Positions 36,582 to 39,307 are shown, counted from the first letter of the stretch. The stretch: DNA of 64,000 nucleotides from Bergeyella sp. (GCA_049841315.1 JASGDB010000014.1:1697-65696), one strand, 5' to 3'. The notes: a model not told the origin generated them from the letters alone. Translations and numbers: made by a program.

Positions 36582-37466
36582 TTAATCATTATACACCGAA
36601 GTTTTATAAGCAATCAGCGTGTTTTTCATCAGCATTGCTCTGGTCATTGGTCCCACTCCGCCCGGAACAGGCGTAATCCAGCCGGCTTTTTTCTCGCAAC
36701 TTTCAAAATCCACGTCGCCTGCCAGGTGATATCCTTTCTCGGAATCGTCATCAACACGCGTAATTCCGACATCAATAATGACAGCACCGTTTTTTATCAT
36801 TTCGCCTTTCAGGAAATTCGGGTCGCCGAGTGCGGTTATCACAATATCGGCGTTTTTCGTATATTCTTCAATATGTTCCGTGTAAGAATGTGTGAGCGTA
36901 ACGGTGGAATTTCCGGGGAAATCTTTCCGCCCCATCAAGATGCTCATCGGTTTTCCCACAATCCGGCTTCGTCCGATGATGACGCAGTTTTTTCCTTTCG
37001 TTTCAATGTTGTAGCGTTCCAATATTGTCAAAATTCCGTAAGGCGTTGCCGGAAGAAAAGTGTCCATTTCCAACGCCATTTTCCCGAAATTTTCGGGATG
37101 AAATCCGTCCACGTCTTTTCTCGGGTCTATTGCCATAATGATTTTTTCCTGGTCAATTTGTTTCGGCAACGGCAACTGAACGATGAATCCGTCCACCGCT
37201 TTTGATTTGTTGAGTTCCTCAATTTTTTCCAACAATTCGGCTTCGGAAACCGTGCTCGGGAATTTCAGAAGCGAAGAACGGAAACCGACTTCTTCGCAAT
37301 CTTTCACTTTGGAATTGACATACGCTTTGCTCGCACCGTTGTTTCCCACGAGAATTGCCACCAAATGCGGAGCGCGTCTTTTGTTTTCGAGGATTTTTTC
37401 GACTTCCGATTTTATTTCCCGTTTTATGGTTTTGGATAGTGATAATCCGTCAAGAATCTGAGCCAT
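36582..37466 (-). CDS. folD: Bifunctional methylenetetrahydrofolate dehydrogenase/methenyl-THF cyclohydrolase
   Basis: 294 aa. MAQILDGLSLSKTIK..., VGNNGASKAYVNSK, GFIVQLPLP, and GRSRIVGKPM. Confidence 0.92.
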   Translation of the reverse strand: MAQILDGLSLSKTIKREIKSEVEKILENKRRAPHLVAILVGNNGASKAYVNSKVKDCEEVGFRSSLLKFPSTVSEAELLEKIEELNKSKAVDGFIVQLPLPKQIDQEKIIMAIDPRKDVDGFHPENFGKMALEMDTFLPATPYGILTILERYNIETKGKNCVIIGRSRIVGKPMSILMGRKDFPGNSTVTLTHSYTEHIEEYTKNADIVITALGDPNFLKGEMIKNGAVIIDVGITRVDDDSEKGYHLAGDVDFESCEKKAGWITPVPGGVGPMTRAMLMKNTLIAYKTSVYND

Positions 37467-37476
37467 TTTTTGCTTT
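37444..37476. repeat. Direct repeat copy 1: functional start region of folD (first 8 codons plus 10 nt of leader)
   Basis: aatccgtcaagaatctgagccattttttgcttt is identical over 33/33 nt to 39275-39307. Weaker similarity continues for about 12 more nt after a 7-nt indel. Confidence 0.9.
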
Positions 37477-37583
37477 ATTTCACTTTATTTAGACTAAAAT
37501 CAATACGAAAATTAATATAAAGTATTGATTATCATGTGTTTTTTATGTTGTTATATTAAGTTTTATTATTTTTTTATTAATTA

Positions 37584-39224
37584 TCACTTAATAAAATATT
37601 TTGTCCATTTTTTTGTTCCCCATTTATTTATTTTACCAGAATCCAACATATTTTTTATTATTCGCCTGACTTTGAAAATATTTATTTCTTCTCCTATTCT
37701 CTTGTGAATTTCGCCAAAAGAAGAGTTTGGATATGAATTAATATCTTTATAAATTAATTCCTCCAGCCTGTAATCTTCAATGTTTTTAAGATTTGTTTTT
37801 ACATTCTTGAAGTCTATTTTCTTTACAAAATCCGGATTTATTGAATATTGAGTTCCTTTTGACTTACCAGATTTTATTATCAAATCATAATCAAGCAATT
37901 TGCCTAACCAATTTTTAAGCCCTTGTTCTTCGGTTTGGTTCAAAATTTTAGAAATTTCAGAAGACGATAAGGATTGATTTTGAGCAATTAACCCGAGAGA
38001 AATGATTTCTTTTTGTTTTAATTGAAACTCTTTGGATGCTTTATCCATCAGCCGAACAATTTCTTTATTAATGAATTGCTTCATTACAGTAACAATAACT
38101 CTGTCATTGGTTTCAACAACATTAGGTATTTGTTTCCCCGAACCCAAAAGTATTTCATAAATCAAATCATATCCACTTCCCTCTCTCTCCATAAGATTCA
38201 AAGAATAGAAAATTTTTGCGATATGCTCATTCCTTCTTGTGCATTGGCTTAAGATATTTTGGGAAGTGACGCCATAAGGGAGTTTTCCAGGACTATGGAT
38301 TTCTAATCGATTCGGGAAAATATTTATAAAAATATCCCCTCTTGTGGTGTATGTCCGATGAGCAAATGCATTTACCAATAATTCCCTAACTATTTCTATT
38401 GGAAAAAAAGGAATATTCTTTCGGAAAAGTCCATCGGAAAATTCCATCGTTTCTTGCCAGTCGGGAACGTCTTTTTCTATTAACTCTATTAGTTCTTTTG
38501 GGTTTTGAAAAAAATCGTCGAACACAAGTTTCCAAACTTTTTCATCTTGTCCGTTGTATCTAATAATTTGAACAGTTGGGGCGTATAATAAAGTTGCTCT
38601 GTCATTTCTTTTACCAATCCATAATATTCCCAAGTTGGTCAAATAACTGTCTTTTTGCAATAAAAAATGCTCTAATAATTCATCATCAGACATTTCTTTA
38701 ACAAAACCACTTACCCTATTAGATGTTCTTATTTCCCTCAGAAAATTGGCTCTTTTAATTATGTCTGCATTTTGTTTTGAAATTTTTTTGCTTGTTTGTT
38801 CTTCCCATACAAAAGCATTTTTATCTGCCGCCAAGCGTCCCATTTCATCTGGTGGGATAGGTTTGCATTGGTCATCGATTCTTATATAGTATTTGCCGTC
38901 TGTTGTGGAAGCGATAGTTTGAATGCTTCTGAACACTTGTATTTTAATGTATTGCGAATTGTTTTCTGCTGTTTCGACAGTTATACTTATTCCGACGTTA
39001 ACGGTTCTTTGCAAAACATTTTTATGTATTTCATCAATAATATCTGTTTTGATGATTTTTTGGTTTGTTGGGGGCAAAGTGTTATTGTCTTCGATTCCGA
39101 TAAGAATAAAACCCCCAATATTATTAGCAAATGCCACGCAATCTTTCGCTAATTCATTCCAATTAGTGTTTTTCCCTTTTAGAAATTTAAGAGATTTTTT
39201 ATCTAAGGTTTTTCCTTCTACCAT
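37584..39224 (-). CDS. AlbA_2 (Schlafen-like) domain protein with HATPase_c_4-like core and C-terminal winged-helix region
   Basis: The track gives 37584..39227 with a TTG start. The ATG at 39224 is more likely. The N-terminus KSLKFLKGKNTNWNELAKDCVAFANNIGGFILIGIED matches the AlbA_2 pattern. The central REL(L)VNAFAHRTYTTRGDIFINIFPNRLEIHSPGKLP matches the RecG-C-terminal-like ATPase pattern. By eye it is markedly AT-rich relative to folD and pgi. Confidence 0.75.
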   Translation of the reverse strand: MVEGKTLDKKSLKFLKGKNTNWNELAKDCVAFANNIGGFILIGIEDNNTLPPTNQKIIKTDIIDEIHKNVLQRTVNVGISITVETAENNSQYIKIQVFRSIQTIASTTDGKYYIRIDDQCKPIPPDEMGRLAADKNAFVWEEQTSKKISKQNADIIKRANFLREIRTSNRVSGFVKEMSDDELLEHFLLQKDSYLTNLGILWIGKRNDRATLLYAPTVQIIRYNGQDEKVWKLVFDDFFQNPKELIELIEKDVPDWQETMEFSDGLFRKNIPFFPIEIVRELLVNAFAHRTYTTRGDIFINIFPNRLEIHSPGKLPYGVTSQNILSQCTRRNEHIAKIFYSLNLMEREGSGYDLIYEILLGSGKQIPNVVETNDRVIVTVMKQFINKEIVRLMDKASKEFQLKQKEIISLGLIAQNQSLSSSEISKILNQTEEQGLKNWLGKLLDYDLIIKSGKSKGTQYSINPDFVKKIDFKNVKTNLKNIEDYRLEELIYKDINSYPNSSFGEIHKRIGEEINIFKVRRIIKNMLDSGKINKWGTKKWTKYFIK

Positions 39225-39228
39225 CAAA

Positions 39229-39236
39229 CAAATTTA
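39229..39236 (-). promoter_or_regulatory. Putative -7 promoter box (TAAATTTG on minus strand) 4 nt upstream of the AlbA_2 gene ATG
   Basis: The plus strand reads caaattta and the reverse complement is TAAATTTG, followed by tttg and then the ATG (39224). This is the same leaderless-like geometry as the DUF4143 ATPase gene. Confidence 0.4.
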
Positions 39237-39240
39237 CAAA

Positions 39241-39307
39241 TTATTTTTCCGTTTCATTCATCAGTTCAAAACACAATCCGTCAAGAATCTGAGCCATTTT
39301 TTGCTTT
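39241..39307 (-). pseudogene. Displaced copy of the folD start region (direct repeat copy 2, 39275-39307) opening an 18-codon dead ORF
   Basis: The reverse translation from the ATG at 39297 is MAQILDGL-CFELMNETEK-stop. The first 8 codons and 10 nt of leader are identical to folD. Homology breaks exactly after codon 8. Confidence 0.85.

Follow-up and report, generated by a model that had tools for sequence, protein, structure and literature searches.

The locus between pgi and folD

The DNA analysed here is a stretch of 64,000 nt from a metagenome-assembled genome (MAG) of Bergeyella sp. (GCA_049841315.1 JASGDB010000014.1:1697-65696), hereafter called the window. Between pgi and folD it carries a gene for a 546-amino-acid (aa) protein with an N-terminal Schlafen-type AlbA_2 domain, which we call X, and this gene is bracketed by a perfect 33-bp direct repeat that includes the start of folD. 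An earlier note on this DNA, made from the sequence alone, had proposed X as a recent mobile cassette and the repeat as the footprint of its entry into an empty site. We compared the region with the contexts of the closest folD genes, of homologues of X, and of homologues of a toxin gene lying beside X (the loci compared are given by L numbers). The results suggested that the repeat pair is probably the seam at which two alleles of one variable slot, one with a toxin-antitoxin (TA) pair and one with X, were joined in tandem by recombination.

All genes of the region lie on the minus strand, in the order lon, pgi, antitoxin-like open reading frame (ORF), ParE toxin, upper repeat copy, X, lower repeat copy and folD. 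The features, by window position, are as follows.

36582-37466, minus strand: folD, intact and live (Pfam THF_DHG_CYH and THF_DHG_CYH_C; 88-92% aa identity to the closest relatives)
37444-37494, minus strand: lower repeat copy (T-down), the native folD leader from GTCTAAA onward and the initial 23 nt of folD, with the perfect 33-mer at 37444-37476
37496-37530, minus strand: AT-rich, terminator-like hairpin AATCAATAC...GTATTGATTTT after X, common to L001 and L065 (RNA fold -7.3 kcal/mol)
37525-37609, minus strand: degenerate 3' repeat module, with ORF end TTTTATTAAGT and a single inverted unit ACTTAATATAA (covariance model R1)
37584-39224, minus strand: X, 546 aa, ATG at 39224 (Pfam domains; 100% identical NCBI protein)
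39229-39243, minus strand: R2b, TAATTTGTAAATTTG, close before the X start and bordering the X unit on the left (repeat search, shuffle test)
39244-39274, minus strand: linker of 31 nt, GTGTTTTGAACTGATGAATGAAACGGAAAAA, between the truncated folD start and R2b
39241-39297, minus strand: pseudo-start ORF, folD codons 1-8 fused to the linker
39275-39319, minus strand: upper repeat copy (T-up), the leader from ATCTAAA, 1 nt after the toxin stop, plus 23 nt of folD, with the perfect 33-mer at 39275-39307
39321-39611, minus strand: ParE/RelE-family toxin (Pfam ParE_toxin, 34.1 bits against a cut-off of 23)
39601-39828, minus strand: putative antitoxin ORF, overlapping the toxin start by 11 nt (the same two-gene arrangement occurs in L071-L073)
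39843-39857, minus strand: R2a, close behind the pgi stop and bordering the TA unit on the left (repeat search, shuffle test)
39860-41500, minus strand: pgi, left flank of the slot (Pfam PGI, 768 bits)

The 33-mer, AATCCGTCAAGAATCTGAGCCATTTTTTGCTTT, occurs exactly twice in the window with 0 mismatches, as the note had reported, and none of 100 dinucleotide shuffles of the window contained it even once. The repeat search extended it to 36 nt at 97% identity, and with gaps the homology covers 45 nt in the upper copy and 51 nt in the lower one, which amounts to the whole native folD leader and 23 coding nt of folD. From 10 nt before the ATG onward the two copies are identical; their differences, two indels (of 7 nt and 1 nt) and one substitution, are confined to the leader. 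The live folD ATG belongs to the lower copy, and the upper copy opens an 18-codon ORF (MAQILDGLCFELMNETEK, then a stop) in which 10 unrelated codons follow the start of folD; both points agree with the note. This truncated start keeps the folD leader and ATG, and its TAA lies 13 nt (16 nt with the stop included) before the ATG of X. The expression of X may now stand behind the translation signals of folD itself, by way of this short upstream ORF.

Two features had been overlooked. A second perfect direct repeat, of 15 bp (CAAATTTACAAATTA, or TAATTTGTAAATTTG on the coding strand; hereafter R2), lies at 39229-39243 and 39843-39857. Its two copies are identical at 15/15 positions, one standing directly after the pgi stop and the other directly before the X start, and a match of this kind was reached in 1 of 5000 shuffles (p about 2e-4). 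The TA pair at 39321-39828 is likewise an insertion. It consists of a ParE_toxin domain protein with an overlapping small upstream ORF, as in type II TA systems of the ParE/RelE type, and the antitoxin ORF gave no Pfam match above cut-off.

The segment between the 33-mers is compositionally distinct, with a GC content of 0.306 (0.319 for the X gene) against 0.446 for folD and 0.407 for pgi, so that its description as AT-rich holds. ORF calls found no gene besides X in this insert, and neither an integrase nor a transposase was present in it. The repeat search detected no terminal inverted repeats at its ends, and tblastn found no match to hsdM, hsdS or hsdR anywhere in the window.

Allelic states of the pgi-folD slot

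The comparison revealed that the spacer between pgi and folD is a polymorphic slot in this Weeksellaceae group, with four states. In the empty state (L060-L064, from other species), pgi is followed by 75-114 nt and then by folD; the note had proposed looking for an empty site by comparing this locus, and X is indeed an insertion relative to the closest relatives. In the X-only state, X starts 6-18 nt past the pgi stop and no copy of the folD start lies upstream of it; this state was found in five lineages, with X 84% identical in L001, 81% in L065, 79% in L070 and 78% in L066-L069. In the TA-only state (L071 and L072/L073), the toxin stop is followed at once by the folD leader. This last state was searched for after our model had predicted it, and was then found. 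The fourth state, TA plus X, was seen in the window only. Homologues of the toxin showed 59-68% identity, and the two that were looked up (66-68%) lie between pgi and folD. The exact folD product was absent from database records, and a scan for the 33-mer core aimed at conspecific alleles found nothing.

The junctions of the window can be matched with those of the single-insert alleles. From the toxin stop through ATCTAAA...ATG and GACGGATT, the window can be aligned with the junction of toxin and folD in L071 and L072, both of them TA-only, and the upper repeat copy was therefore assigned to a TA allele. On the other side, the X hairpin (tattgatttt) followed by (A/G)TCTAAA...ATG has the same position as in the X-only locus L001 and is homologous in L065, so the lower copy was assigned to an X allele. 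Differences between the two copies are limited to the leader, the part in which alleles of the TA type and of the X type are expected to differ as well. At the place of R2, the X-only relatives have TAAATTTG after the pgi stop. Taken together, these junctions suggest that the 33-mer is the right border of the slot, present twice.

Two parts of the earlier proposal gave way here. The 33-mer does not look like the footprint of a mobile cassette entering an empty site, since five lineages hold X with the same 3' junction and no upstream copy; and the bracket is better taken as two slot alleles in tandem, since the upstream copy belongs to the TA-folD allele as in L071-L073. The note had also named, as what would speak for an ancient fixed arrangement, the presence of the gene throughout the genus with both copies conserved. 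The outcome of this check is mixed: X does occur at this position in several species, but it is not universal, and it was never accompanied by both copies.

In the arrangement that we propose, a first unit would consist of R2, the TA pair and the folD leader with the folD start, and a second of R2, X with its hairpin and again the folD leader with the folD start. One TA allele and one X allele would have been the parents. An illegitimate joint would run from 23 nt into folD on the TA allele, via a 31-nt filler, to a point just upstream of the R2 of the X allele, and a second joint would be a homologous exchange in or beyond the shared 5' end of folD. The incoming DNA may have been integrated by homology-facilitated illegitimate recombination or, equally, by a single crossover of a circularised fragment. 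Either route would yield an insertion that comes with a long duplication of its target and in which folD stays intact, and neither would need a recombinase encoded by the element. An X-only donor of this kind would be expected to read GTGTTTTGAACTG... upstream of R2.

The gene and the seam appear to differ greatly in age. The slot X genes head the NCBI match list (78-100% identity), with the next matches dropping to 69%. Among themselves they show a ratio of nonsynonymous to synonymous divergence (dN/dS) of 0.04-0.08, with dS from 1.2 to saturated. Because the same gene with the same 3' junction is found in five lineages and has diverged under purifying selection, X is, as far as such divergence tells, a long resident of the slot that is kept as a functional gene under strong purifying selection. 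The seam looks young, as 33 plus 15 nt of presumably unconstrained sequence are unchanged; by our own estimate, and if these sites are neutral, divergence since the event is below roughly 6%, compared with a dS of at least 1.2 among the slot X genes. The idea of a recent mobile cassette is thus partly upheld: the slot is variable and the seam is recent, but X has long been in place, and the repeat is better seen as a slot border doubled by the stacking of alleles. In itself, the X of the window is ordinary, an old, solitary gene under purifying selection and no active mobile element. Synonymous divergence of X against its flanks was tried as a test for horizontal exchange and was set aside as confounded by AT bias and saturation.

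Several observations weigh against the tandem joining of two alleles. The parental alleles are inferred from other species, and all relatives are saturated at synonymous sites. The linker matches nothing in the window, in the fetched loci or in JGI metagenomes, and its expected source, the 3' end of the donor's upstream gene, did not come to light in these comparisons. The skew in the differences between the two repeat copies (3 events in about 22 nt against 0 in 33 nt) is weakly significant when taken alone (about 0.06). The structure comes from a single MAG contig, with the X and toxin sequences each recorded on one contig. Moreover, a true target duplication from a staggered cut gives the same end product, and sequence alone cannot fully separate the routes. 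Two sources proposed for the linker were dropped. Its unrelated codons (MNETEK) had at first been read as a relic of an hsdR start, for which no source was found among the sequences compared, and a relic of a donor pgi 3' end joined at the microhomology ACGGATT was rejected when six pgi ends aligned no better than shuffles (p 0.2-0.9).

A target-site duplication in the strict sense would mean that a chromosome of the TA-folD type received, de novo and at a widely staggered break, a cassette of linker, R2, X and hairpin, with fill-in copying of about 50 nt from the leader and start of folD. It accounts for the direct repeats around a single-gene, AT-rich insert and for the same geometry around homologues of X, where the duplicated sequences and lengths differ, and double-strand breakage has been proposed as a common cause of such structures (Furuta et al., 2010; PMC2853133). 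We nevertheless regard it as unlikely. The junction between X hairpin and folD leader is placed as in the X-only alleles of other species, so X lay next to the folD leader before the event. The leaders differ by two indels and a substitution although the neighbouring 33 nt are perfect, and R2 is duplicated as well. Across the family, there are no conserved cassette termini: the gap from the upstream copy to X is mostly 2-81 nt (longer in four loci), and the 3' tail varies.

An internal tandem duplication of a unit running from the 3' end of pgi through X to the 5' end of folD, after which a TA pair replaced the first X, would produce the same layout of R2 and leader twice over, and replacement of cassettes in the slot clearly occurs. 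This course is improbable, given that it needs two events where one suffices and that the upstream leader copy is TA-allele-like and not X-allele-like.

Classic attachment (att) sites are 15-50 bp long, overlap a gene end and restore the gene. The 33-mers could accordingly be attL and attR of a small island mobilised by an integrase in trans, like a cis-mobilisable element, and a perfect repeat in this geometry fits such sites. We consider this very unlikely, since the insert encodes no integrase, the repeats around homologues are unrelated in sequence and 29-237 bp long, the X-only alleles lack a second copy, and the repeat borders coincide with allele junctions and not with a core site. A classical DNA transposon or insertion sequence fares no better, as there are no terminal inverted repeats, the single ORF is not a transposase, and the repeats, at 29-237 bp, vary between loci.

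It is just as hard to credit that co-occurring TA-only and X-only strains were threaded into one contig by the assembler, even though the DNA comes from a MAG, records of the X and toxin sequences are confined to one contig, and homologues often lie on contigs of about 1.8 kb whose graphs break at the borders. The junction GACGGATT|GTGTTTTG between upper copy and linker is in neither hypothetical parent and so should have been present in the reads, and the larger of the k-mers in common use exceed 33 bp, so that a repeat of this length should be resolvable.

As to those contigs, many X homologues lie on sequences of about 1.8-1.9 kb, close to the cassette length (1792 nt in L065, 1837 nt in L070), and the L008 contig stops exactly where the downstream repeat copy ends. 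The cassette borders seem to be points at which assembly graphs break, consistent with presence/absence polymorphism or with repeats in many samples. The 1.8-kb Logan contigs of L065 and L070 were not retained as junction evidence, as k-mer branch points between co-occurring haplotypes explain them.

Nobusato et al. (2000) and Furuta, Abe and Kobayashi (2010; PMC2853133) gave the name "insertion with long target duplication" to the class of events into which that of the window falls. Members have no mobility genes and have repeats of more than 30 bp that often span a start or stop codon, so that the target gene survives, and they occur mostly in naturally competent species; the mechanism was left open, with double-strand breakage suggested (PMC2853133). 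The window shares with them a small, compositionally distinct insert, a repeat spanning a start codon, an intact target and, across the X family, repeats that vary from event to event. With respect to their length limits, the repeat exceeds 30 bp (33 perfect; 45/51 gapped) and the insert, at 1.8 kb, is below 20 kb; an empty site with a single folD leader and start, to which both repeat copies align, is on record in L060-L062, in other species only. Unlike the restriction-modification (R-M) insertions of Furuta et al. (2010), in which R and M genes are carried, the insert holds X alone, a solitary gene of an R-M-associated accessory type instead of an R-M system. A further difference is that the intermediate alleles visible here favour recombination between existing alleles over a break by a restriction enzyme.

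Homology-facilitated illegitimate recombination and single-crossover duplications are known to give such products (PMC3240628), and arrays formed by sequential displacement have been described for effector-immunity genes of the type VI secretion system and for Rhs orphans (PMC5361080). As in these systems (PMC5361080, PMC3240628), a homologous anchor together with an illegitimate joint would add a module and leave remnants. Their remnants are resembled by the stack of TA and X in the window and by orphan 3' modules found behind the current X elsewhere in the family. In contrast to homology-facilitated illegitimate recombination, the window joint has a 31-nt filler and not a clean microhomology, and the route is read from sequence.

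Catalogues of long target duplications at defence genes go back to 2000, with no mechanism accepted so far. The present locus is unusual in that all presumed intermediates (empty, TA-only, X-only and stacked) are on record in relatives. Each repeat copy can be assigned to a parental allele, which argues for ordinary recombination over dedicated insertion machinery.

On the far side of folD, a gene for a WG-repeat protein of 614 aa (Pfam WG_beta_rep; 34682-36526, minus strand) lies between folD and a radical-SAM gene (33971-34603). In all relatives examined, the radical-SAM gene directly follows folD, and the WG-repeat gene looks like a second insertion next to folD.

The X protein and its genomic homes

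X is 100% identical to the NCBI entry "MAG: ATP-binding protein [Bergeyella sp.]". Pfam confirmed the architecture proposed earlier, with SLFN_AlbA_2 (PF04326) at residues 4-124 (57.1 bits against a gathering threshold of 25.3) and HATPase_c_4 (PF13749) at residues 298-380 (65.1 bits against 26), whereas the C-terminal winged helix stayed below cut-off (SMC_ScpB, 19 bits against 27.4; TIGR00281, 16 bits against 89) and had weak MarR/Rot matches in PDB (E 0.005-0.1). That the architecture has no established function is still the case. NCBIfam has no model for X, and PADLOC-DB 2.0 gave no full-length match, with partial matches over about 110 residues to pAgo-associated PNTD proteins (E 1e-8). 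The closest and sole solved homologue, PDB 3lmm, an "uncharacterized protein" from structural genomics, matches X residues of about 21-442 (E 1e-43 with the family profile); having no assigned function, it adds no mechanism. An AlphaFold2 prediction with 19 close homologues reached a mean local confidence score (pLDDT) of 55, too poor for use.

A profile of 36 diverse homologues matched the nuclease lobe of SLFN11, SLFN13, SLFN14 and SLFN12 (E 3e-6 to 8e-5). In the alignment of this profile with 5yd0, residues E3, D8 and D46 of X correspond to E205, E210 and D248 of rat SLFN13, and among the 19 close homologues the three positions are E in 19/19, D or E in 19/19, and D in 16/19. Mutation of these residues of rat SLFN13 lowers its RNase activity, and the E205A and E210A mutations abolish it. 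X thus shares the SLFN_AlbA_2 domain and the aligned acidic triad with the eukaryotic Schlafen RNases (SLFN11/13/14). It differs from them in matching one AlbA_2 lobe of about 120 aa where the Schlafen core is a pseudo-dimer of two lobes, and its remainder, a GHKL-like ATPase and two winged helices, is unrelated to the Schlafen helicase domains.

X belongs to a large family, with roughly 6000 homologues. A scan of one genome per species yielded 59 loci, nearly all in Bacteroidota MAGs, with X 54-84% identical to that of the window. Identity between Bacteroidota classes reaches 67-69%, and conservation this high across classes points to horizontal spread. The usual home of X is between hsdS and hsdR of type I R-M operons: 35/59 loci have the C-terminal motif of HsdS just upstream of X, the N-terminal motif of HsdR just downstream, or both. 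Pfam resolved the order HsdM, HsdS, X, HsdR in L051. In L037 the neighbours of X are HsdR and an OLD-like nuclease, and in L015 an AAA_5 protein and an Eco57I-like methylase. The placing of the family in defence-type contexts thus proved right. Outside this group, an IncU plasmid of Aeromonas carries an orthologue (44% identical) with an annotated type I system directly downstream of it; another orthologue, on Sinorhizobium pSinB, is solitary. Locus L005 (CAMDAI010000062.1), labelled "MAG: Rickettsia typhi", holds a Bacteroidota-type hsdS-X-hsdR arrangement with X 70% identical to that of the window, and its label is probably a binning or labelling error.

Direct repeats on both sides of X were present in 12/49 testable loci, compared with 5/154 other long ORFs of the same loci (odds ratio 9.7, p 3e-5). 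These repeats are 29-237 bp long and 81-100% identical. The duplicated sequence is the 5' end of hsdR in six loci (L003, L027, L028, L037, L043, L051), the 3' end of hsdS in L039, the 3' end of another upstream gene in L015 and L058, and other sequence in L008, L033/34 and L044. Fragments of the hsdS 3' end, of varying length, lie between the upstream copy and the X start in L003, L008 and L028; they would fit variable illegitimate breakpoints of a donor hsdS-X-hsdR fragment at the left joint. Two Paludibacter contigs share a 168-bp duplication around X at the same positions (L033:5652-5819/7786-7953, and L034), with copies 92-95% identical, covering a 72-aa ORF. This duplication is inherited or transferred as a unit.

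From these contexts, we infer with lower confidence that X is a type I R-M accessory that survives in the window as a solitary gene. By analogy with PrrC, it may act as a second-strike nuclease; alternatively, it may control hsdR. PrrC is an NTPase-regulated RNase that is embedded in a type I locus and silenced by that locus (PMC1484252). Like PrrC and RloC, the anticodon nucleases (PMC1484252), X combines a nuclease-type domain with a putative NTPase, is hsd-linked and has solitary relatives. There is no sequence relationship, as X consists of AlbA_2, GHKL-like and winged-helix parts where those proteins have an ABC ATPase and the PrrC nuclease. The linkage of X with hsd genes is frequent and not obligatory.

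A conserved module at the 3' end of X

At nearly all loci, the X ORF ends in 11-12 nt (e.g., TTCTATAAAGC) that are the reverse complement of 2-3 tandem units of 11-13 nt that lie downstream (TGCTTTATAGAA; loci L002-L059, e.g., L051:7607-7691 and L046:7613-7696). The spacing is constant, at -9 for the inverted unit and at +28 and +39 to +43 for the direct ones, and the conserved spacer contains TGTAAGAAAA. Between loci, the units show covariation: pairing holds in 83% of cells, and in at most 44% when the partner is slid, with 74 double changes, and 0/500 shuffles reached this level; the second unit behaves likewise. With a covariance model, each X was seen to be followed by the module. The copies in the window and its slot relatives are degenerate, and that of the window (covariance model R1, 32.6 bits, E 0.033) has no canonical hairpin fold (z -0.8).

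An RNA hairpin is not favoured as the constrained form, given that the stems are weak, that G-U mismatches show no excess over A-C (27 against 38), and that Rfam held no family for the module at gathering threshold in the nine loci scanned, where only tRNA was found. With no G-U preference and weak stems, the constraint looks like one on matching DNA sites; a hairpin in DNA is still conceivable. The Aeromonas orthologue is followed by GATAGAA/CTATCG repeats, and an ATAGAA core seems to be conserved across phyla. We read the module as a putative binding array, possibly for the winged helix of X and possibly controlling hsdR.

Extra orphan modules were found downstream of X in at least 10 loci, and upstream in one; in five of them the inverted unit is the exact starting point. 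Such orphans appear to be remains of earlier X alleles that were displaced. Sometimes two in a row, they include the following.

L047:7704-7776, orphan module
L032:7856-7940, orphan module
L015:7768-7827, orphan module
L039:7824-7907, orphan module
L005:4323-4390, orphan module
L049:7756-7813, orphan module
L042:7866-7950, orphan module
L041:5885-5969, orphan module

These features allow a broader proposal, which we put forward tentatively, as possible rather than probable: X and its 3' module may form an undescribed, horizontally shuffled accessory of type I R-M systems, acting either as a Schlafen-type RNase held in check by Hsd, as PrrC is, or as a repeat-binding, ATP-dependent controller of hsdR, with turnover by one-ended recombination giving rise to the duplications and the orphan arrays. 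If true, it would supply what has been missing since 2000, a general and testable mechanism for the "insertion with long target duplication". The family, Schlafen-like and strongly conserved, with acidic residues aligned to the nuclease triad and with a cis module, lies between hsdS and hsdR and is a candidate for an additional layer in the biology of type I restriction.

In some genomes X has one or two paralogues, so that two or three X genes with differing repeat units are present together, namely L045, L052 and L053 in one Dysgonamonadaceae MAG, L032 and L034 in one Paludibacter MAG, and L040 and L049 in Bacteroidia MS502-39. The differing units would fit an insulation of binding specificities between co-resident systems.

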